64,000 bases of DNA, from NCBI RefSeq assembly GCF_026250525.1, contig NZ_CP111043.1:1289421-1353420 (forward strand). The letters run 5' to 3'. Both the position numbers and the translations under genes were made by a program. Under the pieces are notes generated by a model. It was not told the DNA's origin. It did not search any database and saw only the letters and a list, made by a program, of their open reading frames with translations. Within the stretch, counting starts at the first letter, position 1, and every line of letters begins with the position of its first letter. Origin of the DNA: Chondrinema litorale (lineage in GTDB: Bacteria > Bacteroidota > Bacteroidia > Cytophagales > Flammeovirgaceae). Of the stretch, positions 1,220 to 33,735 are shown in pieces.

Positions 1220-1339
1220 ATTTATAGTTTCTAGCTAATAGTGAAATAGCAATTTAATGGCTAGAAGTCAAAATCGCACAATTTCTTCCCTCAAAGCAGT
1301 ACAGCGTATACCAGAAAAAGCTTTAAAAGCTTCAAAAAA

Positions 1340-1717: not shown

Positions 1718-1843
1718 ACTAATAAATTTTATACCTTAAAAGGGTAAAGTTATTAACCGACTTATAAAATTTTTACTATTAATTCTAAGTTTATTGATAA
1801 AAGACTAAAGCATCTATCTTTAAAATAAACAACAAAAATTAAA

Positions 1844-3322: not shown

Positions 3323-3791
3323 AATATCTGCATTCTTTCTAATCAAAACAAACTTACAATACTAAATATAAGATCATATGGATAATTTTATGATTGCATT
3401 TGTGGCAATGTTAGCCACTGTGTTTTTCTCTAGACTAATAAATGAAAAGGCAAATAAAAAGCTCGATCCGGATAAAAAACTTCTTCTAATCGACTTATTT
3501 TCAGATAGTAGAAGCTGGTCTAAGGTGCAATTTTCGCAATTGTAATACTCTTTTTTTTAAGCTTAAAATTTAAGCTCTTACCTAATGTTTGGATTAACAT
3601 CATCTATTTCACATCATTATTAATTTACTTCGTGATTATGACCAGACATACTCACAAAAAACTTAAGCGAAATGACTTCCCTGATGATTATATAAAGTCA
3701 TATATCTTTTCGATTTCTGTGCGACTAATTGGACTCGTTATCTTTGTTTCTCGAATCAATTTTTAAGTTGTTAATACTATCAACATAACCA

Positions 3792-4247
3792 ATGAAAACA
3801 CAAAAATTCGGACAAGATAGAATAAATGATGTTCGTAAGAGACTCTCAACTTTGAGTGATGAAGATTACGATTATGAGATTTTTGATTTCTTAAGTGACA
3901 AAGAAAATCTTGATGAAAAGTTGAGTGTACTACAATTGGAAATAATGGCTACCTACATACTTGAATATGAAGTTAACAATGGAGGTTTCGATCAGTTTTT
4001 TCTAAACAATGAAGATAAATATATTGATGCTGCTATAAATGGTTTGAAGAAAATTGAAGCTGTTGAATTTACTAGCCTTGCAGAAAAAGCTAAGGAAATA
4101 TATCTAAGTAATATTAATCAAGCTATAATTGGTAGAAACCATGAATTTGATGTATTAGATGATAGTTTTTACGATTTACCATCTTACCGTACTCAAAGAA
4201 TCGCATTCACTAAAAAGCATTTAGATGAAATTCTGATCGATAATTAG
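3792..4247 (+). CDS. hypothetical protein (DUF4375/DMP19-like NGGFDQF motif)
   Basis: ORF of 151 aa packed tightly with the two downstream ORFs. Family assignment is from memory of the motif only. Confidence 0.35.
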   Translation: MKTQKFGQDRINDVRKRLSTLSDEDYDYEIFDFLSDKENLDEKLSVLQLEIMATYILEYEVNNGGFDQFFLNNEDKYIDAAINGLKKIEAVEFTSLAEKAKEIYLSNINQAIIGRNHEFDVLDDSFYDLPSYRTQRIAFTKKHLDEILIDN

Positions 4248-4249
4248 AC

Positions 4250-5857
4250 TTGCCCTCCTCCCTATTCAAAACTAACTTAGCTGCTGCAAAATTAAAGACC
4301 TATACCAAAACCAGCAGCATGAATTACCAATCGATACTGGCACAAAATATTGAGCTAATCAAGCAAGCAGCTCCTGACCATAAATCGACCAAAGACAAAG
4401 TACATAGAGAATGGGCAAGCATTATCAGAAATGATATTTCTTTTATGGCTTTGACTTATCAATACTTGGTAGCCAATCTGGCAAACTTCGAAAAAAAATC
4501 TACCACTGAGCAAATAGACCTGTACAAGTACTTACTGGTTTTGGCGAGCTTCTCTCCACAATACAACCTGCTTTCTAAAATCGACCATATTCTCAGCCAA
4601 TACAATGAGCCGATTTGTAAGTCTATCGAGCGCTTATTAGATGTGGCTGATTTTCAGATTATTGAAAGCAACAAAATTATTCATACTGGAACACTTGGCG
4701 ATTTTATCTCATTAATCTTCGAGTTGTACTATACACACACTTCGAGTGAAAGTATTTGCAGGGAAAAAATAGCTCCATACATTCTACCTCTTTGTAAAAA
4801 CTTCAATACAAATAATACCTATCTGGCTCATTTACTTCCGTATCATCCAGAAGCTATTTACACGACAACTCAACTTTTACTGCTTTACATTGAGCAAAAA
4901 AATGACAGTATTTTGTTCCAAAGTATTTGCTACGATATGCTGGGAGAATATGCTAAAAGAGAAGATTTTATACATAAAAATGCTCCAAAAATCTTTACTG
5001 AGTTATTTAAGCTTAAACAAGATTGGTCGAGTGAAGACATCAGTTTTTTAATTGATAAAGGTATTTTAGCTGCTTTCGGAATCAACCTTGCCAGTAAAGA
5101 AGCGCAACTCGAAGCACTCACCGAAAGAATTGCAATTCTTAAAGCCAAAGAATTACATAAAGGAGTAAAACACTATAAAGAACAAAAGCAGAAAATTGAA
5201 GCAAACTACGAAGGCATCCAACAAAAAAAATGGAATGGTGCTGTTCGCTCCATTGCTGTAAAAAAGCCAATTACCAAAGCTTTAGAAGTAGCAATTAAAG
5301 CCTTTGCTCAACATCAACAAATAAGTGTTTTAAGTGCATTATTCAATGATAGCATCGAGTTTAAAAACAAGCCAAAACTCTATAGTTTCCATAAAAACCC
5401 AAAAGTTATTTTTAAAGATTTTGCATTTAAACTATGGGTGATAGAAGAGCTGATGTACAAGCAAGAATTACTCAAACCAAAGTTTGATGTGCGGGAGTTT
5501 GCCAAAGAATACGACAAAAGGCAAATAGACGTCGAGCACGATGGTTATAGCATTATTCCAGAGGTACAGAAGTATTTTAAGCAATTAGATATTCCTCTGG
5601 AGTTACTCAACCAAGTGAAAGAACTCGGCATAGATGATGGTATTTTTGGAGGTTCAGATGTATACAATCAGTTATGGCCTTACTACGATCCCGGTTGTGG
5701 TGATGAGCTTTTACCGATCTCCAACAAAGCAGTGGATGATCTTGCATTGTTACCCAATTTAAAAAAGATTATAGGCTTGGAACTATCCAACCCCGGAAAA
5801 AAACTGGTAAAAGTCCTTAAAGAAAAAGGTATTGAACTAGAAGAAGTTGATAAATAG
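4250..5857 (+). CDS. hypothetical protein, 535 aa (true start possibly the Met at 4319)
   Basis: Long ORF, 2 nt after the upstream gene. No recognisable motifs. Confidence 0.4.
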   Translation: MPSSLFKTNLAAAKLKTYTKTSSMNYQSILAQNIELIKQAAPDHKSTKDKVHREWASIIRNDISFMALTYQYLVANLANFEKKSTTEQIDLYKYLLVLASFSPQYNLLSKIDHILSQYNEPICKSIERLLDVADFQIIESNKIIHTGTLGDFISLIFELYYTHTSSESICREKIAPYILPLCKNFNTNNTYLAHLLPYHPEAIYTTTQLLLLYIEQKNDSILFQSICYDMLGEYAKREDFIHKNAPKIFTELFKLKQDWSSEDISFLIDKGILAAFGINLASKEAQLEALTERIAILKAKELHKGVKHYKEQKQKIEANYEGIQQKKWNGAVRSIAVKKPITKALEVAIKAFAQHQQISVLSALFNDSIEFKNKPKLYSFHKNPKVIFKDFAFKLWVIEELMYKQELLKPKFDVREFAKEYDKRQIDVEHDGYSIIPEVQKYFKQLDIPLELLNQVKELGIDDGIFGGSDVYNQLWPYYDPGCGDELLPISNKAVDDLALLPNLKKIIGLELSNPGKKLVKVLKEKGIELEEVDK

Positions 5858-5865
5858 AAATCAAA

Positions 5866-6195
5866 ATGAATAATCAACTCAAAGAAAGGCTTTTTAAGTT
5901 TTTACAAACCTGTGATAACTACAGAGGCAGAAAGATTATTATTAAAGAATTTATTACGACCAATAAAGATAATTACAACAGACATTTTACTACCTTTTCT
6001 GAATTGGAGTTTACGTTGCAAAGTTGTGGTGCGAGAATAAGTGGTGGAAGAGCCATGTTTTTAGGTGATAAATTGTCTTATGAAATCGCCATTGACATAA
6101 TTGTTGATTTAATAGAAATAGATGAGCTCAATTTTGAGTTGGTCGAAAAATATAGCGAATCGGTTTATAGAAAATCTGAACTCAGGTTTGAGTAA
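5866..6195 (+). CDS. hypothetical protein
   Basis: 109-aa ORF 8 nt after the previous gene, same strand, operon-like. Confidence 0.35.
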   Translation: MNNQLKERLFKFLQTCDNYRGRKIIIKEFITTNKDNYNRHFTTFSELEFTLQSCGARISGGRAMFLGDKLSYEIAIDIIVDLIEIDELNFELVEKYSESVYRKSELRFE

Positions 6196-6282
6196 ACATT
6201 AAAAAGCCTAAAAAACAGTAATTTCGAGACATAATAAACTTTACAAAATTCACTTCTGTTAATTATTACACACTTTCGCTAC

Positions 6283-6298
6283 ATTTGAATTTTGCAAA
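6283..6298. promoter_or_regulatory. 16-mer ATTTGAATTTTGCAAA, copy 1 (upstream of or overlapping the AraC start)
   Basis: Identical 16-mer recurs at 7258..7273 between the AraC gene and the SDR gene. Confidence 0.45.
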
Positions 6299-7250
6299 TC
6301 GTATCTCTCTGATGAAAAACATTAAAGTAACCTCACTCGAAGAATTTTACAAAGAAGCTGTCAACTTCACTGGTAAAGATTTAGAACAAATTCTACCTCC
6401 GGGAATCAATAAAGAAATTGGGCACTTTAATATATTCGACATTGCAGAAACCATACAATCTGTAAAGCAAAAGGCAGAGATGCCATACAACCGCAGAGCT
6501 TATTATAAAATCAGTTTGATCAGAGGGAAAAACAGGGCAGAATATGCCGATAAGGTAATGCAAGTGCAAAAAAACGCTTTGCTTTTTGCTACGCCCAAAG
6601 TACCTTACCACTGGGTTGCTGAAGATGAAAACCAAGCTGGCTGCTTTTGTGTATTCACAGAAGAGTTTATGATAAAGAATAAAAGTGGCGTGGTGCTAGA
6701 TGAGTTACCAATCTTTAAATCAGGCAGTTACCCCGTATTTGAGATTAGTAATGAGCTGGCAGAAGAGCTGAATCACATCTTCAAAAAAATAAAAAAAGAG
6801 ATAGCATCTGACTATGAATTTAAATATGATATGCTGCGAAATTATGTAGTAGAACTCATCCATTACGGACAAAAGCTACAGCCAGTTACCGCTGCTCATG
6901 CAAGCCAAAATGCTTCTTCGCGCATCTTATCACTGTTTATAGAATTGCTAGAAAGACAGTTTCCGATAGAATCTCCCGCACAAAAACTAAAACTAAGATC
7001 GGCAAAAGAGTATGCAGAGCGCCTTGCCATCCATGTAAACCATCTGAATAAAGTCTTAAAAGAAAGCACTGGCAAAACCACTACAGAGATTATTACCAGT
7101 AGAATAGTACAAGAAGCTAAAATACTTCTAAGGCAAACCGACTGGAATATCTCAGAGATTGCTTTTAGTCTGGGCTTCGAAGAAGTTGCCCATTTCTCTA
7201 ACTTCTTTAAAAAGCAGACTACTTTTACTCCTATAACATTCCGCGCATAA
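6285..7250 (+). CDS. AraC family transcriptional regulator (start may be 6312)
   Basis: C-terminal AraC-type double HTH (ISEIAFSLGFEEVAHFSNFFKKQTTFTP). N-terminal ligand-binding-like domain. Confidence 0.75.
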   Translation: MNFANRISLMKNIKVTSLEEFYKEAVNFTGKDLEQILPPGINKEIGHFNIFDIAETIQSVKQKAEMPYNRRAYYKISLIRGKNRAEYADKVMQVQKNALLFATPKVPYHWVAEDENQAGCFCVFTEEFMIKNKSGVVLDELPIFKSGSYPVFEISNELAEELNHIFKKIKKEIASDYEFKYDMLRNYVVELIHYGQKLQPVTAAHASQNASSRILSLFIELLERQFPIESPAQKLKLRSAKEYAERLAIHVNHLNKVLKESTGKTTTEIITSRIVQEAKILLRQTDWNISEIAFSLGFEEVAHFSNFFKKQTTFTPITFRA

Positions 7251-9349: not shown

Positions 9350-10303
9350 TTAGGTTTTAATTAGCGCTACTTCACCTGTTCGATTGTTAAATACCATTTG
9401 CTGCACGGTAATACCCATTTTTATATTCTCATCACTTAAAACCTGAATGCATTCTCTAAAACTCAGGTCCTGCTCACTGCTTAGTAGCAAAGTAGCTCTA
9501 TCGAACCTACCACAAGAAGTACTTTGCAGAATACTATCGTCTGTTTCGTTGTTTTGCAGCTTTTTATAATCGTTGGTAACTACTATATAGCCTTTGCCCG
9601 ACTCAGGTACTCTGGTTGCAAACCGGCTTGGCGTTCTTTCGATTACTGCCATTTCTCCTACATTAACTCCAGAAAGTAAGAGCAGACAGTCACTCACAAT
9701 TATGGTTGCTTCTAGCTGCCTTTTTGCTTCATTAAAAGACTCAGCACTATCTAAAACATCTCGCAGTAAAAATGAGATTGGCATTGCTACTTCTGGTGAA
9801 TCGTTGCTCAATACCGCATTTAATGTTACCGAAAACTTACCGGGTTTTGTACCAGACAGAGCACCTACAAAGCCTGCCCAGCCTACCGTCTTGTAAACTG
9901 TTTTACCACCTCGCTGAAAGTTAAAAATTTTAGAATGGGTAGATAATAAATTGTTTTCGGTATGCCAGTCTAAATTTCTAGCATGCACAACCGTATCTGC
10001 ATTGTTAAAAGCAAAAGCGGTACAGCCAAAATAAAACTTAAGTACATCGTAATACAAATTGGCAATTAGTATCTGGTCTGCGGAGTATTTAGAAATTGAA
10101 GCAATAAAATCAATTTCTTCTAGGTAAGATGTGGGGATTAATTGCTGTTTGTACAAACCGATAATGTCGAAAATGCTTGTTTCACCAGCAAGATCACTCA
10201 AATAACATTCGATTAGCTCATCAATCTCAGCGGCGTGATTCTTTAAAAAAGCCCATCTTTCGCTAGCAGGTAAATCGAGATTTACAATATATTCTTTTTC
10301 CAT
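9350..10303 (-). CDS. Ntn-hydrolase of the acid ceramidase/NAAA/choloylglycine hydrolase family
   Basis: Cys-Thr nucleophile context (FGCTAFAF), RNLDW motif, about 317 aa, no signal peptide. Confidence 0.55.
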   Translation of the reverse strand: MEKEYIVNLDLPASERWAFLKNHAAEIDELIECYLSDLAGETSIFDIIGLYKQQLIPTSYLEEIDFIASISKYSADQILIANLYYDVLKFYFGCTAFAFNNADTVVHARNLDWHTENNLLSTHSKIFNFQRGGKTVYKTVGWAGFVGALSGTKPGKFSVTLNAVLSNDSPEVAMPISFLLRDVLDSAESFNEAKRQLEATIIVSDCLLLLSGVNVGEMAVIERTPSRFATRVPESGKGYIVVTNDYKKLQNNETDDSILQSTSCGRFDRATLLLSSEQDLSFRECIQVLSDENIKMGITVQQMVFNNRTGEVALIKT

Positions 10304-20957: not shown

Positions 20958-22001
20958 ATGCGTATAGAGAGTGATTTAAAACTTGGTTTTAAAGATGTGA
21001 TGATAAGACCCAAGCGATCTACGCTAAAAAGTAGAAAACAAGTTTCTTTAGAAAGAGAATTTAAATTTCTACATAGTGGGCAAATTTGGAAGGGCATTCC
21101 TATTATAGCTGCTAATATGGATACTGTTGGCACTTTTGAAATGGCAAAAGCACTTGCCGAAAAAAAGCTTTTTACAGCTATACATAAGCATTATGAATTA
21201 AATGAATGGGAAAGTTTTTTTAAGGAAACTGTAAATGAAACAAGCAATTTTATAGCTGCAAGTATTGGCACCGTACAAAGAGACTCCGAAAAACTAGCCG
21301 CAATTGTAAAACTCAACCCAGCACTAAAGTTTATTTGTATTGATGTTGCCAACGGATACTCAGAACATTTTGTAGAATTTGTAAAGAAAACCAGAGAGCA
21401 ATATCCAGATAAGGTAATAATTGCAGGCAATGTAGTAACTGGCGAAATGGTAGAAGAGCTTTTACTCGCTGGAGCAGATATTATAAAAGTAGGTATTGGC
21501 CCGGGTTCGGTCTGTACTACCAGAGTAAAAACAGGTGTAGGTTACCCGCAACTTTCTGCCATTATCGAATGTGCCGATGCAGCACATGGTTTAGGCGGAC
21601 AAATTATTAGCGATGGTGGCTGTACTACTCCCGGAGATATTGCCAAAGCTTTTGGGGCCGGAGCCGATTTTGTAATGATTGGCGGTATGCTTGCCGGACA
21701 CACCGAAAGTGGTGGAGAGTTAATTGAAGAAGATGGCAAAAAATATAAGCAATTTTACGGGATGAGTTCTTCAACAGCTATGGAGAAACATTTTGGGGGT
21801 GTAGCTGAGTATCGTGCTAGTGAAGGCAAAACTGTAAAAGTGCCTTTTAAAGGAGATGTTGAGTATACCTTGCAAGATATTTTAGGTGGTATTCGCAGTA
21901 CTTGTACTTATGTTGGTGCTCCTCGCCTAAAAGAGCTTACCAAACGTACTACTTTTATAAGAGTGGTGGAGCAAGAAAACCGAGTATATAACAATAAGTA
22001 A
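20958..22001 (+). CDS. guaC: GMP reductase (IMPDH/GMPR family, no CBS insert)
   Basis: 347 aa. Catalytic loop [14 protein letters not shown]-barrel family signature. The length fits GMP reductase rather than IMPDH. Confidence 0.75.
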
Positions 22002-22008
22002 TTTTATA

Positions 22009-22040
22009 AGCACTGAGTTATTCAGTGCTTTTCTTTTTCT
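22009..22040. terminator. bidirectional hairpin terminator between convergent guaC and the SRPBCC gene
   Basis: AGCACTGA-gttat-TCAGTGCT hairpin followed by TTTCTTTTT. Confidence 0.55.
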
Positions 22041-22462
22041 TCTAACAATGTTTTGAGGTTATTGAGAATCTTATTCCAAACCTGTTCTGTATAACCTTTA
22101 TCTTCTAAGTCTTGATTGTTATCTTCTTTCACATTTACCAAAATTCCGTTTAGCTCTTTAGTAAGCTCAATGGTAATTGTTTTAAAGTTATCTGAGGTAT
22201 CATTAGGTTTAGAAGAGAGACTATAGCGATTATACTGCAACATGTTTTCAGGAATCATTAAAAGTATCAATCCGTTTTCTTCAAAAGGTTTTCCGTCTAA
22301 CTCACCTACCCATTCTATTTTGCTACCTTCTTTCCAATTAGAGGTAATCTCAGTACCAAACATATATTTCTTAATTATTTTCGGGTTTATTAGAGCATCC
22401 CAAATTACTTCTACTGGTACATTTATTATTTTATTAATTTCTGCAATATGTTCTTTGTACAT
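22022..22462 (-). CDS. SRPBCC superfamily (AHSA1/Aha1-like) protein
   Basis: 146 aa. Sequence is typical of the activator-of-Hsp90-ATPase-homolog domain family. Confidence 0.5.
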   Translation of the reverse strand: MYKEHIAEINKIINVPVEVIWDALINPKIIKKYMFGTEITSNWKEGSKIEWVGELDGKPFEENGLILLMIPENMLQYNRYSLSSKPNDTSDNFKTITIELTKELNGILVNVKEDNNQDLEDKGYTEQVWNKILNNLKTLLEEKEKH

Positions 22463-22776
22463 GATAGTTGGTTCGATTTAGCTACAGCCTGAGTTAATAT
22501 ATTCTATGTTTTGAAAAACCAGATACAACAGCTTTTGTTCTGTACACTCTTATGGTTATCTAAAAAATCTTATTTTTTTTCTAAAATTTTAGATTTACAG
22601 CATAAATACGAATAAAAACCTCCAATTTTGAGCCTGATTCAGACATAATCGATTTATTAGATCATAATGCGAACTATTAAAATAATGCAATTATATTCTA
22701 AAAAACATTACATTATTCAATTCACTCGTTAAGTTCACAGAGCCATATTTAGGTATAACCTATCACCATACATGCT

Positions 22777-23157
22777 ATGAAACTATTTGTATTGTTTTTA
22801 CTGATTTCACTTTTCAACCTCCAAACAGAACCAGTTTGTACAGATATAAAAACAGGAACTTTCAAAATTAGCAATCAAGAAACGGGTACCCACATTATTA
22901 CAAGAACTAAGAATAAACAAGTTGAAGAACATCTAGAACGAAATGTAAAAGTGCGCTATAAAGTAAATTGGTTAGATAACTGTACTTATCAACTTTACGA
23001 CCGCAAAGTGCTTAAAGGGGATAAATATGGAGATAGTAAAAATGATACATTAACCGTGAACATCACAAACATTACTACTGAATTCTACGAAGTATTTATC
23101 TCGTCTAACTTCAGCGATTTTACAGTTAAAGCAAGGCTGGATATTGTGGAGCTTTAG
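22777..23157 (+). CDS. secreted hypothetical protein
   Basis: Signal peptide. 126 aa. Confidence 0.35.
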   Translation: MKLFVLFLLISLFNLQTEPVCTDIKTGTFKISNQETGTHIITRTKNKQVEEHLERNVKVRYKVNWLDNCTYQLYDRKVLKGDKYGDSKNDTLTVNITNITTEFYEVFISSNFSDFTVKARLDIVEL

Positions 23158-23206
23158 CATAAATGAGCATGTAACCAATACGAAATTACAGAACTCATAT
23201 TCCTCC

Positions 23207-23968
23207 TTAAACTGGTTCTAATATCCCTTTTATAAATTCACTGTAGGCATCACCCATTGGTAATTGATCATCCACTTTAATCTCTTTCCTAAAAGTGGTT
23301 TCCTCCTGCTGTTTTACTGGATTCCAACCTGGTTTTTCTACCGAATGCCAATAAAGCCCTATGCCTCTTTTTTGCCAAAGTGGAAGATTGTTAAAGTTAA
23401 TTCCATTTTGAAAAAGTAATTCATTTTTAAATGCAGTGGATTTGCCTTCTATGGTTTTGGTAGCTTCCTTCACAGATTTACCCTGCTCTCTCAACAACCA
23501 ATAGCAGTGTGCATTTAATGCATTTCTATGTGCATCTTCATTTCTCCATCTAAAATAATCGACAACTAATTTATCGCTAGGCAATTGAGAAAGTCGGCAA
23601 TCAAACACGCCCATATCATTTAGCAACAAAGAAAACTTAGCACTTGCCTCACCCGCCAAAATCGAATTTATTTTTCTGGTTTTACGGGCAAAAGCAGTTT
23701 CGTTAAGATCGAATAAGAGAGAAATCTCATCGCTTTGTGTGTATCCATAAATTACTTTAAAGCCACAATTCATTAAATGGCTAACAGTCTCCACCATTAT
23801 ATCTCTAAATCGCTCGTCGAATGGACGCTTAAAATTATGTTTCTCTTTAGTAAGGTGCGTAAAACCTCTTCCATCAATTCTTGCCACAATATACATATTC
23901 GGTGGCACACAAAAATCGTGGGCAGTTTCGTAAATGCGTAATTGCTTATCAAGCTCGTTAAACTTCAT
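23207..23968 (-). CDS. Thg1-like protein (tRNA-His guanylyltransferase family, 3'-5' nucleotidyltransferase)
   Basis: Aligns over its full length with remembered eukaryotic Thg1. Matches are VARIDGRGFTHL...KHNFKRPFD (Thg1 VVRLDGRNFHRF...KHNFAKPND), YGYTQSDEISLLF (YGQSDEYSFVF) and AFKNELLFQNGINFNNLPLWQKRGIGL ([28 protein letters not shown]). Confidence 0.8.
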   Translation of the reverse strand: MKFNELDKQLRIYETAHDFCVPPNMYIVARIDGRGFTHLTKEKHNFKRPFDERFRDIMVETVSHLMNCGFKVIYGYTQSDEISLLFDLNETAFARKTRKINSILAGEASAKFSLLLNDMGVFDCRLSQLPSDKLVVDYFRWRNEDAHRNALNAHCYWLLREQGKSVKEATKTIEGKSTAFKNELLFQNGINFNNLPLWQKRGIGLYWHSVEKPGWNPVKQQEETTFRKEIKVDDQLPMGDAYSEFIKGILEPV

Positions 23969-24404
23969 TTTGCCAGTTGCTAATTATAAATTTATTGTCT
24001 TTAATTTCTACAGAATACAGTTCATCAAAGCCTTCTTGGTAGGTGGGTAAAACTATTTTTTTATAGCAAGCTTTAACACCCACTTCCGGAATTCTTTGTT
24101 TTCCTGTACGCTGGTTATTTCTTTCTAGCGCATCATCTAAAGTACTCTTAAAATAATAACCTATTATTTTATACTTGCGAGCCCGAGCCTGATCGATAAA
24201 AAGCTTGCGATCTTCAATGGTTGGGCTAGTATTATCCACCACAAATTTTGAATGCGTCGCAAAACAGGTTTCTAAGAATAGATTTTGCTTATTGCGGGTA
24301 TTTAGCAAGTCGAGACTAATGCGAATATGAGTATTAAAGAAATACTCTTTGTAAAAGGTTGATTTGCCGCTTCCTTGAATTCCTGTGAAAATAATCGCTT
24401 CCAA
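23958..24404 (-). CDS. P-loop polynucleotide-kinase-like kinase (PNK/Clp1-type)
   Basis: Walker A GIQGSGKST. VVDNTSP motif resembles the PNKP kinase VIDNTNP. 148 aa. 11-nt overlap with the downstream Thg1-like gene. Confidence 0.6.
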   Translation of the reverse strand: MEAIIFTGIQGSGKSTFYKEYFFNTHIRISLDLLNTRNKQNLFLETCFATHSKFVVDNTSPTIEDRKLFIDQARARKYKIIGYYFKSTLDDALERNNQRTGKQRIPEVGVKACYKKIVLPTYQEGFDELYSVEIKDNKFIISNWQNEV

Positions 24405-24524
24405 TACTTAAATATTTACTTTTTTCTACTGCAACCAAATATAATTTTTAAGTGGCTATAATAAATAGAAGAAGTGCAGGTATAATAATTATTCACAAGT
24501 TTTTATTTAAAACAAATTGCACAT

Positions 24525-25232
24525 ATGAAAATATCTGTATCTCTCATCGCTTTATTGCTAGTGAGTTTGTATTCGCAGGCTCAATTTTTTGTTCAACAAT
24601 TACCACAAGACCAGATCTTAAATAACGATAAGGCCTATGTAGTTACCAATCAAGGTGACACAGTGAAAGGGGTAATTATTAATGGCTCTATTCTTAGAGA
24701 CTCTGTAAATGGCGATCTTCTTGAGGCTTTTACAATTAAAACAGATCAAGGAAAAATTAAATACAAGATGTTAGAAATTCAAACACTGGGTGTTATACCG
24801 GGTGTAGGAGCCAAACATAAAGACATGCCTCTATTAACTACTTTAAAAAAAGCTTCTGATACTACTTTTTTAAAAGCGGTAGAAACAGAATGGGTAATTT
24901 TTGAGCGTATATTATTACCAGGAAAAAGAGAAGTATACGACTTGGCTCAATTAGTGAACCCAGGATTCGACTCTAAAATTAAGGTATACACACGCCGTGA
25001 AGCTAACGACTCAGGAAATTTAAGTTTCGCTTCTATTAGCTTAACTGGTGGTGAAGACCTATCACACCTTGTATCTATAAATAATGAAAGACCTATACTA
25101 GTTACAAAAAGAAAATACCAGAAAGATGGTTATAATATGGTTTTTAAAGACTGCGACATGCTTAGCCAAGGCAAGTTAATGTGGAAAGAGTTTGCTAAGC
25201 ATATTTATGTATATGATACAAAATGTGAGTAG
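24525..25232 (+). CDS. secreted hypothetical protein
   Basis: Signal peptide. 235 aa. Confidence 0.4.
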   Translation: MKISVSLIALLLVSLYSQAQFFVQQLPQDQILNNDKAYVVTNQGDTVKGVIINGSILRDSVNGDLLEAFTIKTDQGKIKYKMLEIQTLGVIPGVGAKHKDMPLLTTLKKASDTTFLKAVETEWVIFERILLPGKREVYDLAQLVNPGFDSKIKVYTRREANDSGNLSFASISLTGGEDLSHLVSINNERPILVTKRKYQKDGYNMVFKDCDMLSQGKLMWKEFAKHIYVYDTKCE

Positions 25233-25234
25233 GC

Positions 25235-25870
25235 TTAGTCTTTTTTATTCTTGAGATAAGTATTAGCTAATCCACACAGCGCAGTAACTATTTTGCCATC
25301 TTCCCATTTGTGGAGATTAGAGCCTTGCCTAAATCCACATTGGGTTGTTTTTATATCTTCCAACCCATCTATTTCCATAAATACAATACCTTGCTTGCCC
25401 ATTGATCCATAAGTCATACAGCCATACTTACTACCATCACACATTTCTATACTTTTGATTTTTCCACTTCGCAAGTAGTTTTCTATAAAATCTCTCACAC
25501 AAGCAGCATCAACAATATCCAATTTATATCGCTGTTCAAGATTGTTGATAATAAATAAAGGACTATACGAATTTACATTTGTCAAAGTAGAAGAATATAA
25601 CATCACATCATCCGGATTAAACTTTACAGTATCTCTATAAAGATCTTTTATAAGTGTCTCTATTTTTTCTTCTAATGGTAGTTGATTAAAAAGCGCTGCT
25701 GCTTCAGCTCGGGCATCAATGGGTTTTGCGCTAGTAGAATCTGTATCTGCGTATTGTGCATAAGCAGATTGTAAAAAGATTAGATACGAAATGCTTAAAG
25801 TTAGTAAGATGCTAAAAAATGCCTTTTTCATTATTTCACAGTTAATTGGTAGAAAACCACAATTTAGCAT
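25235..25870 (-). CDS. secreted hypothetical protein
   Basis: Signal peptide (ISYLIFLQSAYAQ). 211 aa. Confidence 0.4.
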   Translation of the reverse strand: MLNCGFLPINCEIMKKAFFSILLTLSISYLIFLQSAYAQYADTDSTSAKPIDARAEAAALFNQLPLEEKIETLIKDLYRDTVKFNPDDVMLYSSTLTNVNSYSPLFIINNLEQRYKLDIVDAACVRDFIENYLRSGKIKSIEMCDGSKYGCMTYGSMGKQGIVFMEIDGLEDIKTTQCGFRQGSNLHKWEDGKIVTALCGLANTYLKNKKD

Positions 25871-25934
25871 CTAAAACAAAAAAAGCAAGAACAAATAAAA
25901 TGTTCTTGCCTTTAAACTTTTATACGTATTCAAT

Positions 25935-28900
25935 TTATTTCTTTTCTATTGCTTCTTTTATGCCTTTGAGGTTTTCTGTAAAGTATTCGAGTTGTTCCAA
26001 CAAAGCAGCCATTTGATTATTGCTACCATAGCCTTTTTGTTTCTGGTTTTTCATGAATACTTTTTTGATCTCTTCCCAACGGTTATGGGCAACTTCATCT
26101 AGCCAGTTCATCATGCCTTTAAATATTAGCATGTTGGCTTCTGCTCCAGAGGTAAGCGTTTGAGACTCATTTTCGTAATGAGAAAGCACCAATGTTTGCA
26201 ATTCTTTTTCATTCATTACCGGCATTACTTTCTCAGCCAATTTGTTCATGTTACGGTAAGAACCTTGCAATTTAAAGGCTGGCTCAGTACGGTATTCATC
26301 CGCCTGTGCTGCCGACTCAATGTATTTCAAGTTTACTTTAAGAATTGCATCACGTATTTTCAACAATTTAGAAAGTACGCTCACATACTCGTTGAGTTCG
26401 TCAGAGTCCATATTGGCTTCAAAGTCGAGACCTTCTCTATTGCCCGTTTCCGCATAGCGAATAACCGTGTGAATATCTTTACGGCTTCTTACTGCTAGTT
26501 TGGTTAATACCGGATTAGAAGTAAGCGCATTCTCGATATAACTCAATCTGAATTGCGATTCTGTATCGCCAATAATATCACCTAGATTGTAAGTATCGGC
26601 TCTGTTTGCCAACATATCTGGAATTCTAAACTTCTCGCCACTTTCTGTATAAGGGTTACCTGCCATTACCACACACACCCTTTTTCCTCTTAGATCATAA
26701 GTTTGCGGGACGCCTTTGTACACACCTTCAATCTTTCTTTGACCATCGCAAAGTGAGATAAATTTTTGTAAAAACTCTGGGTTACAGTGCTGTATATCAT
26801 CTAGATACACCATTACATTGTCGCCCATCTCAAATGCAAGGTTGAGCTTTTTTAGTTCTTCTCTGGCACTGGCATTTCCAGCATCGTCGGGATCGAGAGA
26901 AGTTACTTGGTGCCCAATTGCAGGCCCGTTTATCTTCATAAAAATCAAACCGATTCTGTTGGCGATGTACTCCATGAGTGTAGTTTTACCATAACCCGGA
27001 GGCGAAATTAAGAGCAACATACCCATTAAATCTGTCCGTTTGTTATGTCCCACTACACCAATTTGTTTGGCAAGGTTATCACCGATTAAAGGCAAATACA
27101 CTTGGTCTACCAACTGGTTTCTCACAAAAGAGCTCAACACCCTTGGCTTAAACTCATCTAACCTAATCTGCTGGCGGAATTTATCCACCATCGATTTTTT
27201 TAGCTCTTGAAATTTTGTATAAGCAGGCACAACTTTATTCTCGAACTTGCTGAGCCTTTGCATAAAGTTGTGGTAGTTAAGTGTATAACTTCCCTTCTCT
27301 ATAGAATTATGCTCACCACTTAAACCTTCAATTGCCTGTTCTACTTCCACATTCAAAACATTCGCATTATCGAATGAATTGGTGAAGAGTAACACTGCAG
27401 CTTCATTAATACTTGTAGCTACATTACTAATACCATCAAAAGTTTGGCCTTGCAACCAAGCTTTCAGCCAATCACAAATGAGTGTAAAGGCATCTTCTGG
27501 AATATCTTTTAATGAGGCAACAGAATGCTTATAAGTAGCCTCAGCATCTTTATCCTTTAGGTCTTTAGTGAAACCTTCACAAATAAATGCAGCTTCTCTA
27601 CTGATAGTAAATATATCATTTTCAGCTAGTTCTAAAGTAAGATAACTTGCTGCTTGTTTAGCAATACTAGCAGTAAACAATCCTGAACTTTCTACAAATG
27701 CAGTGATTTCAGTTGCTAAATCATCAATCAATTGTTGCTGATCTTCGCTATTCGGGAAAAGCTTTCTAATAACCGCTTGCCCACGAATTCGATGCAGAAG
27801 TAAAGCTTTGCTGTTATCGCCTTCTTTTAAATCTTCTGCAAACATCTGCCACCATAATGCAGCGCAAGCACGTACATCGGGCATAAACCTCAACAAATCA
27901 ATTCTACTTTCCAGATCGATGAGCTTTTGCAGTAAAATGGCTGCGTCGGCATCATGTACACCTTTTTGGTAACCCTCTTGATAGCGAGGTGCCATATAGG
28001 TTTGAATCTTTGAAGCCAGTTCTTTTACTGGTAAACCTGCTTGCTCGCTTAGTGCTTTATCTCGCTTAATTTGTTTTAAGTATTGATAAGCCAAGTACTC
28101 AGCCCTATACACATCACTGTTCTCAGAAACAATATCTTGAACCATAATAGCTGGCTGGAAATGGTTTCCAGACAAATCTGCTTTTTCAAAGAAATTAGTT
28201 CCCGAAAGATGGTAATACAAATCGCCATCGCGTTGTACCAAACTCACATCCAGCGACTGCACATTTACAGAGAATTTGTGTTTACCCAAGGTGATCACAT
28301 TTTCTCCATCAGCAAATAAATCTTGCCTATCTTTTAACTGTCTTACCGCCTCTTCTTTGGTTGAATTCAGTTTGCTTTGCAGGTCATCTGCCTTCACGTT
28401 ATCATCCAAAGATTGCAACTGCGTAATCATTTCTTGCACTTTGTGCACCATGATATCAGCCGCGAAATAGGCATTAATCTCGCTTACTTCTTTAAAAGAC
28501 TTTACCTTATGCTCAATGCTTTTGAGTATTCTATCAGCAGCACTTTGCAGTGAGGTTGCCTTCTTATTTCTCTGCTCAGTAAGACTCAGTTTTTTGCTTT
28601 CAAAAGCTTGATAAACTTCGTCTCGCTTGTCTGCAAGTTGTGGAATAAACTCATCGAAATCGGCAAATTTGCCTTCCAGTTCTTCGAGCTGTACCATCAA
28701 CCTAGTCATGTATTCTTCGCAGCGCTGAGGAGTGTCGCTTACATCCAGATAGTTAACTACCGATTGACTAATTAAACGCAATTGCGCAGCAAATTCGGCT
28801 TTTGCCTCAGTGCCTAACAGGTTTTTACGTACCTGTTTTAACTTGGCTTTTACTTGGTTAAGCGAAGCATAAATATCTGAAATATTATCGATGATGGCTG

Positions 28901-30854
28901 TTGTTTGTGTGGCATCATCAATCTTAAGATTACTTACAATCTCGATCAACATCTCTAACTCCTGCCCAATCTGATCGTTTTCTTGTTGTACTTGATCAGC
29001 TTCCGCCACTTTGCTTACTGCATCAATCTTATCTTTTTGCCCAGCAACTTTTTGCTCGTAAGGCAACAAGGAGTTTTCTTCTAAGAGAAAAGCCACACAC
29101 TTTTGCGAAACCTCTTCGTTTCTCTCTGCTAGCTGTTTTTCTAGCTCTTCTATAGCCGGAATATCTGCATAGCGAAGCTCTTTGAGAGAAATCGTTTCAC
29201 CACGAATGCTACGAATATTGGCAAGGGTTTCAACAAAATCGTTGATCTCTTTGTATTGCCTTCTTCTTACTTTATCTACTAACTCTTTGGCTTCTTTAGA
29301 AACCTTGCCAACTGCTTCGAGTGTAGCTTTCTTAATCCTTCTTACCTTCTCAAACTCCTCAATTGCTACCACCGAGTTTTGGTGGATTTCCTGCAAAACA
29401 GTATCTATCTGGAAAGCCTCTTCGTGGCCAATCCAGTAATAACTGTCTCCAATCTCACTTGATTTCTTCGCTACATCTTGATAAAGCGTTGTATAAGCCT
29501 CCTCCTTCTGAATGAGCTTTAGCAACTCGTTACACTCTGCCATTGCCCGCACAATATCTTTGTTACCTACTTTGTATAGATAACTTTCATTTTGAGTAGG
29601 CACCTCATAATCTGGATGCACATAAGGAGTTTGCCAAAGTTGGAGCGCATGGTGCTTTTTAGGCTCATGATCTGCCTTAAAATACACCAACTCACCATTT
29701 CTAAAAAAAGAATAACCGCTACATATTACCGGACTTTCTACTGTTTGTTCTATCCTGTTATAAGAAAGCAATACATAATCGCCCTCAGCAGGATTGTAGA
29801 ACACATATTGAAAATCTTCTCCATTGGGAGAAATATTCTTTTTCTCGAAGCGCATTCCAGTTAGGCTCTCATCGTAAATTTTAAGCTCACCGGTTTGCAA
29901 ATAATATCCTTGCGAATAAATAATACCTTGCTCATCTGGTAAAAGCACACAAGCATCTTTAATACTATCGATTCTGTGTACCTCGCCCAGTTTATAATTG
30001 AATACGAAAAAGCGAAAATGCTCTTCCATATAAGGTTTAATCTTGAGCAGAATTAGGTTGCCTAAATCTGCAAAGTAAATCTCTGCATCATCCAGTGTTT
30101 GTTCTGGTTGGCTTACTTCTTCTGCATAAATCCCTTCTCCTGAATCTGTATTATCTTCAATTTTGATGGTAAGATCACCACCAATGGTTTCCACAAACAC
30201 TTTATCCATAATGGAAATGTGTGGGTGTTGCCCTTCTCTATGGTGATCGCGGCTTGCTCTCTTCCACTCAAACTCATGCTGTGCCGGATATTTTATTTCG
30301 TGATCGCTGCGATTATCAAGGTATGTGAGCTTTTCTCCTTCAACCAAAAACTTAAAAGCTTTTACACTGCTTGTGTCTTTGGATGTTTGAAATTTGAGGA
30401 AAAGGTGCGGCCCAATAACCACAAACTTAGAAAAAGTTGTATGCTTGTAATATTTGTAAAGTTGACGGAAATCCTCAGCAAAACGCTCATCTGAAAGCAA
30501 TGAAAGGTCTTTTGCATGAAAGCTGTCATCGTCTGATCTGAACTGATAAACACTGAAAACATCAGATATTTCCACCTCAGACTTTAAACCTATATGCACA
30601 TTGTAACCAAAAATAAAATGGTCGCCTACCGCTATCATGTCGCGGGGAACACAATTATTCTCTGTGCTAATTCGCTCGGTTTTTAACAAGGTAGTCGGAA
30701 TATTACCAAAGGTATCTTTCCTTACCTCGTTTAGCTGGTTTAATTTTTCTTGTAGTGTATTGCCACTTTGCTTCAGCCTCTGCTTTAATATCTCATAGGT
30801 ACCAGCATCTATTTGCGGTGATTCTGTAGCTTGTGGTGTTGTATTTTGTTCCAT
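25935..30854 (-). CDS. giant (1639 aa) protein with C-terminal MoxR/midasin-class AAA+ ATPase module. N-terminal beta-rich region and central coiled coil
   Basis: Walker A LISPPGYGKTT, Walker B VMVYLDDIQH, sensor-1 VVMAGNP (compare ATxNP of MoxR/dynein), Arg-finger region MLANRADTY. A long heptad-like central region. No TM segments. Confidence 0.6.
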   Translation of the reverse strand: MEQNTTPQATESPQIDAGTYEILKQRLKQSGNTLQEKLNQLNEVRKDTFGNIPTTLLKTERISTENNCVPRDMIAVGDHFIFGYNVHIGLKSEVEISDVFSVYQFRSDDDSFHAKDLSLLSDERFAEDFRQLYKYYKHTTFSKFVVIGPHLFLKFQTSKDTSSVKAFKFLVEGEKLTYLDNRSDHEIKYPAQHEFEWKRASRDHHREGQHPHISIMDKVFVETIGGDLTIKIEDNTDSGEGIYAEEVSQPEQTLDDAEIYFADLGNLILLKIKPYMEEHFRFFVFNYKLGEVHRIDSIKDACVLLPDEQGIIYSQGYYLQTGELKIYDESLTGMRFEKKNISPNGEDFQYVFYNPAEGDYVLLSYNRIEQTVESPVICSGYSFFRNGELVYFKADHEPKKHHALQLWQTPYVHPDYEVPTQNESYLYKVGNKDIVRAMAECNELLKLIQKEEAYTTLYQDVAKKSSEIGDSYYWIGHEEAFQIDTVLQEIHQNSVVAIEEFEKVRRIKKATLEAVGKVSKEAKELVDKVRRRQYKEINDFVETLANIRSIRGETISLKELRYADIPAIEELEKQLAERNEEVSQKCVAFLLEENSLLPYEQKVAGQKDKIDAVSKVAEADQVQQENDQIGQELEMLIEIVSNLKIDDATQTTAIIDNISDIYASLNQVKAKLKQVRKNLLGTEAKAEFAAQLRLISQSVVNYLDVSDTPQRCEEYMTRLMVQLEELEGKFADFDEFIPQLADKRDEVYQAFESKKLSLTEQRNKKATSLQSAADRILKSIEHKVKSFKEVSEINAYFAADIMVHKVQEMITQLQSLDDNVKADDLQSKLNSTKEEAVRQLKDRQDLFADGENVITLGKHKFSVNVQSLDVSLVQRDGDLYYHLSGTNFFEKADLSGNHFQPAIMVQDIVSENSDVYRAEYLAYQYLKQIKRDKALSEQAGLPVKELASKIQTYMAPRYQEGYQKGVHDADAAILLQKLIDLESRIDLLRFMPDVRACAALWWQMFAEDLKEGDNSKALLLHRIRGQAVIRKLFPNSEDQQQLIDDLATEITAFVESSGLFTASIAKQAASYLTLELAENDIFTISREAAFICEGFTKDLKDKDAEATYKHSVASLKDIPEDAFTLICDWLKAWLQGQTFDGISNVATSINEAAVLLFTNSFDNANVLNVEVEQAIEGLSGEHNSIEKGSYTLNYHNFMQRLSKFENKVVPAYTKFQELKKSMVDKFRQQIRLDEFKPRVLSSFVRNQLVDQVYLPLIGDNLAKQIGVVGHNKRTDLMGMLLLISPPGYGKTTLMEYIANRIGLIFMKINGPAIGHQVTSLDPDDAGNASAREELKKLNLAFEMGDNVMVYLDDIQHCNPEFLQKFISLCDGQRKIEGVYKGVPQTYDLRGKRVCVVMAGNPYTESGEKFRIPDMLANRADTYNLGDIIGDTESQFRLSYIENALTSNPVLTKLAVRSRKDIHTVIRYAETGNREGLDFEANMDSDELNEYVSVLSKLLKIRDAILKVNLKYIESAAQADEYRTEPAFKLQGSYRNMNKLAEKVMPVMNEKELQTLVLSHYENESQTLTSGAEANMLIFKGMMNWLDEVAHNRWEEIKKVFMKNQKQKGYGSNNQMAALLEQLEYFTENLKGIKEAIEKK

Positions 30855-30971
30855 TTTTTTCAGTTAACAGGTGGTTACAGTTAGCAGTATTTCATTTACT
30901 GTTACTAGAGAGCAATTATCAGTCATCGTATTCTGACAACTGATAACTGTTGACTGTTCTCTGAATATTGA

Positions 30972-33029
30972 TTACAAACCAAGTGCTTTCACTGGCATTT
31001 CGGCAATGCCTGATTTTCTGGCGTGGTCTATCAAACTACTGATAAAGCTCTGCTCTTTCGAGTCGTTGCTGTAGCTTGAAAGTTTGAACAACAAGGCTGA
31101 TACACTCAAGTTTTTGATATCTTCTGTGGTTAATCCGAATCTGGAAATCATGTCTCTTACTTTCTCAATCATGTTACCATTTTCAGAATCAAGCAAGTTG
31201 CTTTTGATCTCCTGTATAGTACTACTGCTTTCTACAAAGCGGTCTACTGATTTACCAGTGGTAATAGACTGAATAATTTTCTCGAAGAACATGCTGTCTC
31301 CACCTACGATATCAATCTTAGCAGATTTTAATCCATCACTCATTACTTGAGCTTGTGCCATTGCAATGTCTTTTTGCACATTTACACGCGCCATTTCAAT
31401 ATCCTTCTCAATCTGCAATTTCAAGCGGAATTCTTCCAAACCTCTACCAGCTTCGTCTAACAATTTGTTAGCCTCAGCTTCTGCTCTAATTCTCTGTGCT
31501 TCTACCAATGCTTTCTCATTAGCTACTTTAGCCTCAGCCATACCTTGTTTCTCAATGGCAATTGCCTTCGCTTCCATACCTTTTGCCTCTGCTTTGGCTG
31601 TTTCTTCGATAGTTTTAGCATCTGCAGCAGCTTGCAACTCTTGAGCTTGCGCTTTAAATTCAATTACTTTCGCTTCTGCAATACCTCTAGCAGCTTCGTC
31701 TTCTATTTTCGCTTTAGCCAACACTTTGGTAGCTTCTGCATCTTTTTCTGCGATCATAAATTCAGTATCTGCATCAATGCGTTTTTGTTTCGCTCTAATT
31801 TCAGCAGCCTGTCTTTGTGCTTCAGCAGCTTTTACTTCTTTCAATAATTGCTCTTCTGCATCTTGCTCAGCTTTGGTAATCGATACTTTTTTCAAACGAT
31901 CAGCCTCTGCATAAGCCTGAGTATCTTTAATCTTCTCTTGCTCTTCTACCACAGATTTTTCAAGAATGATACGCTCTTTAATTACATCTTGAATATCGCG
32001 TTTCTCTTGCTCAAGGGCTTTTTCTTTAGCAATATTTGCCAACGAAACAATTTTCTCTCTTTCTGTAGCTTCTAGCATTCTTTCTTTTTCTAGGCGCTCT
32101 GTCTCTACTGCATCTACTTTCTCTTTGTTTTTCTGAGCAATAATTACTTGTCTCTCTTTATTTTGAGTAGCAATCTCCAATTCTTCATCTACACGGATGC
32201 GTGCATTTTCTGCTTTCAATCTTTCTTCGTGCTCTACCATTGAGGCAGCAGCTTCTTCTCTTGAGCGAATTGTTGAAATTTCTCTGCGTTGTTTTTCTTC
32301 TGCTTCAGCTTGTTGTTTTTCAAGCTCAAGAACTGCTTCTTGTCTTTCAACATCTTGCTTTTTGATGGTTTTCTCTTCGTCGTTTCTAATCTTGTTAGCA
32401 AGTATCTTTTGAGCAGCAGTTTTCTCAGTAATTTTCTTGATACCTTCAGAATCTAAGATATTATCTGGATCGAGTGAAGCAAGTGGTGTTTGCTCTAAGT
32501 AGTCAATCGCACAGTCTTCTAGTATATAACCATTAAGGTCTGTACCAATCGCCTTTCTTACCATGTTGTTCAACTCATCTCTCGAATTGTATAAATCGAT
32601 AAAGTCGAATTGCTTACCTACGGTTTTTAAAGCTTCTGAGAATTTTGCTTCAAACAAAGCAACAAGCAAACTCGTATCCGATGCTCTATCGCAACCAATC
32701 GCTTGAGCAACATCCATCACACTATCGCGATTCACTCTCACAAAGAATGCAACCCTAATATCAGCACGAAGGTTATCCTTACAAATCAATCCATTTTTAC
32801 CTTCTCTGCTAATTTCGAAGCTCTGAACAGAAATATCCATAATATCCATTCTTTGCAAAACAGGTATTACCGTACCTCCATTAAAGAACACTTTTGCACC
32901 TCCAATGCCTGTTCTTACTATTACTTTACCTTGTTGTATTTTTTTAAAAAAGCTGGCAATTATAGCAACTGTACCAAAAACGATCACGGCAGTAGCTACC
33001 AGAAAAATTATCACTGTTTGTCCAATCAT
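30972..33029 (-). CDS. flotillin family SPFH-domain protein (YqiK/FloT-like)
   Basis: N-terminal TM helix, SPFH domain, then a very long E/A/K/Q-rich coiled coil and flotillin C-terminal region. 685 aa. Confidence 0.85.
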   Translation of the reverse strand: MIGQTVIIFLVATAVIVFGTVAIIASFFKKIQQGKVIVRTGIGGAKVFFNGGTVIPVLQRMDIMDISVQSFEISREGKNGLICKDNLRADIRVAFFVRVNRDSVMDVAQAIGCDRASDTSLLVALFEAKFSEALKTVGKQFDFIDLYNSRDELNNMVRKAIGTDLNGYILEDCAIDYLEQTPLASLDPDNILDSEGIKKITEKTAAQKILANKIRNDEEKTIKKQDVERQEAVLELEKQQAEAEEKQRREISTIRSREEAAASMVEHEERLKAENARIRVDEELEIATQNKERQVIIAQKNKEKVDAVETERLEKERMLEATEREKIVSLANIAKEKALEQEKRDIQDVIKERIILEKSVVEEQEKIKDTQAYAEADRLKKVSITKAEQDAEEQLLKEVKAAEAQRQAAEIRAKQKRIDADTEFMIAEKDAEATKVLAKAKIEDEAARGIAEAKVIEFKAQAQELQAAADAKTIEETAKAEAKGMEAKAIAIEKQGMAEAKVANEKALVEAQRIRAEAEANKLLDEAGRGLEEFRLKLQIEKDIEMARVNVQKDIAMAQAQVMSDGLKSAKIDIVGGDSMFFEKIIQSITTGKSVDRFVESSSTIQEIKSNLLDSENGNMIEKVRDMISRFGLTTEDIKNLSVSALLFKLSSYSNDSKEQSFISSLIDHARKSGIAEMPVKALGL

Positions 33030-33081
33030 ATCTTTTAGAAATTAAATTGTAATTCAGTTTTATATAAATGTGTTTTTAAAT

Positions 33082-33735
33082 TCAATTTGATGTGTGATAG
33101 GCTTCTACCACATAGCAGTTTTTATCTTCTTTGCGCATCAGTACCAATGCCTGATCACCTTTATTAAGCGGAGTACCGTCGTGTGTTACCACATAAACTG
33201 TTTGGGCTATGCCATCTAGTTTTACTTCTGCCAATCCCATATTTTCACCATCAGCCGTACTTCTCAAAGTACAAACTTTGCCAACTACCTTTACATCATC
33301 TGGTTTGTTGATGTGCTTAAACATTTGCACAAAAGGCATACAAGCAACTTTGGTTAACAACAAACTCACTATAATGAGTGGGATAAATAATATTGCAGCT
33401 ACGCCCCAAGAGCTGTTTGCTAGGTAATAATTACTTAAAACAGAACCTACCCAAAGAAACAGTGCAAAAAAGCTTATCAGAATCATGATAGGGATTTCAC
33501 CTATATTGAAAAAGTAAAGCAGATTGTTGACTGCACTTCCTCCTTCTGCTGATACATCTGCGTCTGTGTCTACGTCTGCATCCATATCTATATCGGCATC
33601 CAAGTCTACGTCAACATCAAAACTGCTTAGATCAAGTACACCTACAAATGTGCCCAACCAGTAAAATGAAACCAATATCATTAAAAATGTATAAGGCAAG
33701 TTTACAGGCTCCAAAGCATAACTTAGAAATTCCAT
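33082..33735 (-). CDS. NfeD/YqiJ-like membrane protein (flotillin operon partner)
   Basis: TM helices, an acidic DVDVDLDADIDMDADVDTDADV linker, more TM helices, and a C-terminal OB-fold-like beta segment. 217 aa. Directly upstream of the flotillin gene. Confidence 0.6.
   Translation of the reverse strand: MEFLSYALEPVNLPYTFLMILVSFYWLGTFVGVLDLSSFDVDVDLDADIDMDADVDTDADVSAEGGSAVNNLLYFFNIGEIPIMILISFFALFLWVGSVLSNYYLANSSWGVAAILFIPLIIVSLLLTKVACMPFVQMFKHINKPDDVKVVGKVCTLRSTADGENMGLAEVKLDGIAQTVYVVTHDGTPLNKGDQALVLMRKEDKNCYVVEAYHTSN

Follow-up and report, generated by a model that had tools for sequence, protein, structure and literature searches.

A kinase and Thg1-like protein gene pair of Chondrinema litorale resembling the predicted PNK-Thg1 operons for RNA 5'-end repair

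Why a gene for a small P-loop kinase should run into the gene for a Thg1-like protein (TLP), a 3'-5' nucleotidyltransferase/polymerase, is the question raised by a locus of the 4.94-Mb chromosome of Chondrinema litorale (Bacteroidota), which was analyzed here within a stretch of 64 kb (positions 1,289,421 to 1,353,420 of contig NZ_CP111043.1; hereafter the window). A preliminary description of this DNA had proposed that the kinase prepares RNA 5' ends for the TLP. The two open reading frames (ORFs) and the 11 nucleotides (nt) that they share are present on the minus strand where that description had placed them (Table 1), and the database records for Chondrinema litorale contain identical proteins for both, named 'ATP-binding protein' (the kinase) and 'tRNA(His) guanylyltransferase Thg1 family protein' (the TLP). 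The ORF pair and its domain matches are far above chance level. As detailed below, we consider it likely, with some reserve, that the pair serves to repair RNA 5' ends and is a module of the already published PNK-Thg1 type (PNK, polynucleotide kinase), consisting of two genes that are probably translationally coupled.

The two Pfam domains of the Thg1 family were detected in the TLP, i.e. Thg1 (PF04446; E=5e-33, 114.1 bits for a gathering cut-off of 29.2) and Thg1C (PF14413; E=3e-16, 60.1 bits for a gathering cut-off of 26.3). The top solved structure was the TLP of Methanosarcina acetivorans (MaTLP, 5axk; E=5e-31, about 35% identity), with lower scores for human THG1 (3otb; E=7e-25, about 34% identity) and for the TLP of Bacillus thuringiensis (BtTLP, 4kgk; E=7e-22, 28% identity by tblastn). 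Human THG1 thus outscores a bacterial TLP in the PDB search, though the archaeal protein ranks first and the human one covers only residues 14-223, which is a small correction to the proposed whole-length alignment with eukaryotic Thg1. The motifs RIDGRGF, KHNFKRPFD, YGYTQSDE and NELLFQNGINFNNLP, quoted in the preliminary description, are all present. The catalytic carboxylates, whose possible absence it had named as a concern about this protein, are kept: D32, D80 and E81 align to the metal-binding residues D29, D76 and E77 of human THG1 and are invariant in 15 homologs. Both domains and the three carboxylates identify the protein as a member of the Thg1/TLP superfamily of 3'-5' nucleotidyltransferases, in which any bacterial homolog counts as a TLP under the definition of PMC3061083.

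With the kinase, Pfam yielded the generic AAA_33 domain alone (E=6e-9), and the best partial matches in NCBIfam were the kinase part of PNK-3'Pase (2e-9), PSTK (5e-9) and bacterial Pnkp (2e-5), all of them far under the equivalog cut-offs. A single-sequence search detected the kinase domain of mouse PNKP (9e-7) in an alignment that covers the P-loop, 'SLD' against 'NRD', 'VVDNTSP' against 'VIDNTNP', and the lid; GSGKST and VVDNTSP, the motifs noted earlier for this protein, are both there. When a family profile built from an alignment of 30 homologs was run against PDB, the matches were limited to polynucleotide or tRNA kinases, namely PNKP (1e-11), the kinase of C. thermocellum Pnkp (CthPnk, 6e-6), PSTK (3e-5), a Mucorales stand-alone RNA 5'-OH kinase (2e-4) and T4 Pnk (0.05). 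The three top matches of the predicted fold are proven 5'-OH polynucleotide kinases, with the Mucorales kinase 9drz among the relatives, and a search with the kinase module at the N terminus of a cyanobacterial Pnkp picks up the window kinase without intermediates (28% identity, 8e-6). Residues G8, G13, K14, D32, D57-N58-T59, R95, N96 and R99 are invariant in the 30 homologs. The Asp of PNKP 'VNRDTL', the counterpart of Asp32, is taken here to be the catalytic one, and the RxxxR motif of the lid is expected to have the role that it plays in T4 Pnk and CthPnk. The spacing of Asp32 also fits that of polynucleotide kinases, which carry this residue about 17-19 positions past the P-loop Lys (D38 in CthPnk, D36 in MciKIN); the Asp is reported to matter for activity in these two enzymes, and the 9drz family is described as phosphorylating 5'-OH RNA and DNA, with the Asp being essential. 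By profile and predicted fold, the kinase is nearest to proven polynucleotide 5'-OH kinases, with small-molecule kinases farther away, which upholds the PNK-like assignment made earlier and leaves its small-molecule alternative without a match.

Two more specific identities were considered for the kinase and rejected. A trifunctional Pnkp does not fit a protein with a single domain that scores 23 bits with TIGR04075 (cut-off 750), and PSTK does not fit a protein that reaches 35.9 bits with TIGR03574 (cut-off 290.5), matches it over residues 37-137 only, lacks the C-terminal tRNA-binding domain and ends at residue 148, compared with the about 250 residues of PSTK. In a wider form of this doubt, the protein would be no 5'-OH polynucleotide kinase at all but a PSTK-like tRNA-linked kinase, a kinase acting on the 2'- or 3'-OH of RNA, a zeta-toxin-like kinase or a small-molecule kinase, and its connection with the TLP would lie in regulation or in some other chemistry. 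We regard this as very unlikely in view of the top fold and profile matches, the invariant Asp and lid Arg positions, the short single domain, the direct detection by a Pnkp kinase module, and the fact that the product of a 5'-OH kinase is exactly what a TLP requires.

The arrangement of the two genes is likewise informative. The dual-coding overlap encodes both the kinase C terminus (W-Q-N-E-V-stop) and the TLP N terminus (M-K-F-N), and this geometry suggests translational coupling. The TTG start of the kinase gives the length common to most homologs. Upstream of it, the candidate Bacteroidetes-type -7 box is a weak call and may be a chance match in the 120-nt spacer, because motifs of this type occur in the window at about 0.57 per kb per strand; a scan for sigma-70 promoters and terminators gave nothing exceeding the shuffled background. 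The pair has a GC content of 36.1% (34.5% for the window), and this ordinary composition therefore gives no sign of a recent transfer into the Chondrinema genome.

Table 1. Positions in the window of the kinase and TLP genes and of their predicted functional elements
Feature	Position	Strand	Remarks
Kinase ORF	23958..24404	minus	148 amino acids, TTG start
TLP ORF	23207..23968	minus	253 amino acids, ATG start; 3'-5' nucleotidyltransferase/polymerase
Dual-coding overlap of kinase and TLP genes	23958..23968	minus	11 nt, ATGAAGTTTAA
Kinase Walker A P-loop, GIQGSGKS (GxxxxGK[ST])	24360-24383	minus	residues 8-15
Kinase putative catalytic Asp32, in SLDLL	24309-24311	minus	aligns with Asp of PNKP 'VNRDTL'
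Kinase DNT			residues 57-59
Kinase lid RNNQR			residues 95-99; R99 aligns with a PNKP Arg
TLP D32	23873-23875	minus	catalytic carboxylate
TLP D80-E81, inside SDE	23726-23734	minus	catalytic carboxylates
Candidate Bacteroidetes-type -7 promoter box	24436..24443	minus	TATATTTG, fits TAnnTTTG; 39 nt 5' of kinase start; weak call

The linkage of the two genes was then followed in other genomes, as had been recommended. A scan with the TLP alignment, with one genome per species, gave at least 595 confirmed relatives, and the neighbors were surveyed in the best 80 of these loci, whose TLPs are 63-77% identical to that of the window. At least nine phyla are represented, the sources being Bacteroidota, Cyanobacteria, Bacillota, Gamma- and Alphaproteobacteria, Planctomycetota, Chloroflexota, Acidobacteriota, Synergistaceae and Treponema. 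A same-strand kinase (32-66% identity) lies 5' of the TLP gene in 69 of these 80 loci; it is directly adjacent in 67, and a further gene separates the two in loci L038 and L051. When the neighboring ORFs were clustered, the kinase cluster appeared in 66 loci and any other cluster in 6 at most, the kinase being the only widely conserved neighbor of the TLP. The overlap is exactly 11 nt long in 55 of the 66 related loci with a kinase ORF upstream, with the junction TGGnnnrATGArnTTTrA, and the pairwise identities of the kinases and TLPs co-vary (r=0.61; 0 of 999 permutations in a Mantel test), as expected of a unit that is inherited together.

Several observations from the same loci bear on how the pair is expressed and where it occurs. 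A Shine-Dalgarno-like GAGGAG lies inside the kinase 3' end (in codons for E-E-W), about 9-15 nt 5' of the TLP start, in L014, L023, L026, L028, L043 and others; such stretches belong to Bacillota and cyanobacterial loci, whereas the Bacteroidota loci, the window included, lack them and have AAAGATTGG-type sequences instead, a difference that fits lineage-specific coupling signals. A dedicated substrate tRNA gene next to the pair was looked for and dismissed, as there is no tRNA gene in the window and no consistent tRNA neighbor in 60 related loci. One locus from a metagenome-assembled genome (MAG) of Arenicella (L064, positions 284-6433) carries eight tRNA genes (Leu, Asn, Met, Thr, Lys, Arg, Tyr and Gln) directly 5' of kinase-TLP-x-x-RNA ligase (537 amino acids), which looks like an island for tRNA supply plus tRNA repair. 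Nine viral contigs from IMG/VR (L081-L089), several of them of 150-394 kb, encode TLP relatives of 44-61% identity. The kinase adjoins the TLP in only one of the nine (L087, 26 kb), and the genes that precede the TLP in the others either lack a Pfam match or have unrelated products (Aldolase_II, Bax1-I-like membrane proteins, ATP-dependent DNA ligase), which leaves a phage origin or a counter-defense link of the pair unsupported.

In a few of the 80 loci the pair is found among other RNA repair genes. Hen1 adjoins it in five, directly 5' of the kinase (KIN) in four of them, three being cyanobacterial, and directly 3' of the TLP in L043, and three of the five Hen1 clusters also hold a Pnkp-sized ORF of 850-900 amino acids that contains a kinase, giving the orders Hen1-KIN-TLP-Pnkp (L031 and L070) and KIN-TLP-Hen1-Pnkp (L043). 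An RNA ligase gene lies 3' of the pair in three loci, an RlaP nucleotidyltransferase gene does so in Synergistaceae loci, and a Deinococcus plasmid has the order KIN-TLP...Hen1-NTase-NTase (NTase, nucleotidyltransferase). Two Anaerolineae loci (L021, positions 1766-4844, and L042, positions 68-3140) have a gene for a MazF/PemK endoribonuclease toxin, then a kinase-less TLP and then two RlaP genes; the 64-kb window contains no MazF homolog.

A profile search over 1.84 billion representatives gave 237 clusters at E<=1e-30 and also revealed multi-domain forms, the representatives of which are P0330, P0266, P0325, P0267, P0303, P0290, P0284 and P0285. One of them, P0330 (418 amino acids), is a kinase-Thg1-Thg1C fusion with a real linker and two members in its 90% cluster (contig counts 1 and 2). 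It was the only one counted as a credible kinase-TLP fusion, because the size and junction of P0266 (397 amino acids, a singleton) match a frameshift error in the overlap and this second case may be an artefact. In other proteins the kinase occurs as RlaP-kinase, kinase-DUF2797, WYL-kinase and LRR-kinase (leucine-rich repeats of the BspA type). Contexts and fusions point to RNA repair and to a functional coupling of the two enzymes.

The same contexts allow a reading in which the pair belongs to a larger heal-and-seal pathway as one of its arms, preparing or filling in 5' ends that a ligase encoded elsewhere (Pnkp, Rnl or RtcB) then joins, so that repair would not be ligase-independent. The Hen1-KIN-TLP-Pnkp, KIN-TLP-Hen1-Pnkp, KIN-TLP-RNA ligase and KIN-TLP...RlaP orders, spread over several phyla, speak for it, as do the links to RtcR and RNA ligase listed in the supplement of Anantharaman, Iyer and Aravind (2010, Biol Direct 5:43). 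We nevertheless hold it to be unlikely, since each extra repair gene is found in at most five of the 80 loci, none of them is in the window, and the repair of a recessed acceptor stem by TLPs is ligase-free in vitro.

In the preferred reading of a two-gene repair module, an RNA, most plausibly a tRNA, would lose one or a few 5'-terminal nucleotides, leaving a recessed 5'-OH end paired to an acceptor-stem 3' strand that is still complete. The kinase, as its homology suggests, would move the gamma-phosphate of a nucleoside triphosphate (NTP) onto this 5'-OH, with K14 and S15 of the P-loop holding the NTP and Mg, Asp32 acting as general base and the lid arginines R95 and R99 stabilizing the transition state. 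The TLP would then activate the 5'-monophosphate with ATP or GTP and replace the lost nucleotides by 3'-5' addition, each chosen by Watson-Crick pairing to the 3' strand, giving a full stem without a ligase. The chemistry of this last step is established for the TLPs of B. thuringiensis and M. acetivorans, which perform Watson-Crick templated addition to 5'-monophosphorylated, 5'-truncated tRNAs of several identities and repair such tRNAs 5- to 160-fold better than they add G-1, in a reaction whose first step is described as the use of ATP or GTP to activate the 5' end (PMC4820378). The preliminary description agrees with this work in stating that TLPs repair 5'-truncated tRNAs and need a 5'-monophosphate, and the window TLP is expected, by homology, to repair 5'-truncated tRNA in the same templated 3'-5' manner. 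Because the activation chemistry requires a 5'-phosphate and a 5'-OH cannot be activated, a 5'-OH kinase is the logical upstream partner of a TLP. We infer both the kinase step and the kind of damage. A recessed 5' end in the acceptor stem fits better than a cut in the anticodon loop, which would be a poor substrate and would need a ligase, because templated 3'-5' addition requires a paired 3' strand; the anticodon-nuclease cut given as an example in the preliminary description was thus poorly chosen. The hand-off of 5' ends from kinase to TLP is supported by every computational check and is already the prediction made in the 2010 paper.

A different task for the TLP would be to serve tRNA-His identity by adding or maintaining G-1 like eukaryotic Thg1, with the kinase being a mere helper or unrelated. 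The NCBI protein name, the 34% identity to human THG1 and the ability of bacterial and archaeal TLPs to add G-1 in vitro all agree with this possibility, which we judge very unlikely. The strict, translationally coupled 5'-OH kinase partner would have no use in G-1 addition, because the RNase P product carries a 5'-phosphate; TLPs favor truncated tRNAs of any identity, by the 5- to 160-fold margin given above; and in the tRNA-His gene of the related locus L011, the G at -1 that faces C73 is already encoded in the genome. This gene (positions 10055-10130) lies 3.3 kb 3' of the pair in a Roseivirgaceae MAG, and its acceptor stem was read with U-U mismatches at 5-68 and 6-67.

Because the overlap is conserved and natural fusions, albeit rare, exist, the data also suggest that kinase and TLP are produced in a constant ratio to each other and perhaps work together as a complex. 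A bolder version of the 5'-end repair reading would make of this physical complex a self-contained, horizontally spreading immunity module that rebuilds the 5' ends of tRNA acceptor stems cut by 5'-OH-generating ribotoxins or defense nucleases. If it were true, bacterial TLPs would have a role in vivo for the first time, and it is offered as a tentative idea that we think is rather improbable.

Some points weigh against the 5'-end repair reading itself. The RNA specificity of the kinase is inferred from context only, because its best match, PNKP, is a DNA kinase, and a close second relative is PSTK, the tRNA-Ser kinase. The kinase is absent from 11 of the 80 related TLP loci, and the characterized BtTLP has no kinase neighbor either, so that a TLP does not strictly need the kinase. 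Apart from the pair, the window is devoid of RNA repair genes, of tRNA genes and of Rfam elements: Hen1, Pnkp, RNA ligase and RlaP, used as tblastn queries, found nothing else in its 64 kb, and a search of positions 21000-27000 against Rfam at a permissive threshold gave no match. The searchable literature yielded no experimental work on kinases of this family or on a kinase-TLP pair, and the 2019 TLP review does not mention a kinase.

The genes around the pair in the window encode a GMP reductase, an AHSA1-like protein, unknown secreted proteins and a large DUF3686-AAA protein, and the PADLOC defense models matched neither the kinase nor the TLP. The large protein (positions 25935-33735, minus strand; 1639 amino acids) contains DUF3686 ('ATPase involved in DNA repair'), DUF7902 and an AAA domain, and 5' of it are genes for a 685-amino-acid protein without a Pfam match and for a YqiJ_N membrane protein. 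The three may form a system of unknown function, for which PADLOC gave only a weak mad8 match.

The pair in Chondrinema is thus one more instance of a known, predicted RNA 5'-end repair operon and is not new. It adds no new concept and offers a clean, minimal two-gene example of a class for which, according to the 2019 review, further functional characterization of the TLPs is still needed. If the hand-off is true, it would be a ligase-independent way to rebuild RNA 5' ends and would indicate that there is a class of RNA damage not recognized so far.

When compared with characterized enzymes, the window TLP has the same two Pfam domains and the same catalytic carboxylates as MaTLP and BtTLP, at the identities given above, and differs from them in being linked to a kinase. 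The MaTLP gene is linked to a PRC-barrel gene, and the plasmid-borne BtTLP gene lies beside SLOG and GIY-YIG genes. On plasmid pBTHD789-2 of B. thuringiensis HD-789 (L090, positions 2842-5738), a TLP homolog 28% identical to that of the window likewise follows genes for a SLOG-family protein and a GIY-YIG nuclease, with no kinase, in a setting that differs from that of the kinase-linked clade. The relatives with which the kinase was compared are the polynucleotide 5'-OH kinases represented by the mammalian PNKP kinase domain, CthPnk, the Mucorales stand-alone RNA kinase (LcoKIN/RazKIN) and T4 Pnk. Like bacterial Pnkp/Hen1, the window pair is predicted to begin with the 5'-OH phosphorylation of broken RNA, and the two systems are physical neighbors in some cyanobacterial, Bacillota and Deinococcus loci. 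Pnkp/Hen1 heals the two ends, joins them and places a 2'-O-methyl group at the junction. The pair, in contrast, includes neither a phosphatase nor a ligase nor a methyltransferase, and it would restore the 5' nucleotides that were lost, not seal a break. With no trifunctional Pnkp next to a Hen1, the pair is not a Pnkp/Hen1 system, and its earlier portrayal as the mirror image of Pnkp/Hen1 holds only loosely, since in several genomes it sits inside Pnkp/Hen1 clusters.

The closest counterparts are the operons for which Anantharaman, Iyer and Aravind (2010) predicted RNA 5'-end repair through conversion of 5'-OH to 5'-phosphate ends for Thg1. Their supplement lists 'Poly-Nucleotide-kinase->Thg1' operons in Chitinophaga pinensis (Cpin_5797), Microscilla marina, Verrucomicrobium, Herpetosiphon, Acaryochloris, Planctomyces, Sorangium, Plesiocystis, Cardiobacterium and Myxococcus xanthus (MXAN_5968), two of the listed operons being from Bacteroidetes. 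A TLP of M. xanthus has been assayed in vitro (2019 TLP review), and the Microscilla marina operon as listed has the same DinB insertion as L051. With respect to the 2010 paper and its supplement, the present survey adds the scale of the association, the 11-nt overlap, the natural kinase-TLP and RlaP-kinase fusions (a kinase-Thg1 fusion is not in the 2010 architecture list), the co-location with Pnkp, Hen1 and RlaP, and the structure-based placement of the kinase. These additions are modest; the overlap, the fusions and the co-location ease the design of experiments. The genes of the window are adjacent, co-directional and conserved over distant lineages, as the definition of a PNK-Thg1 operon has it, and they agree with the operons listed in 2010 in the order of kinase and then Thg1, in the families involved and in the proposed hand-off, such that nothing essential differs.

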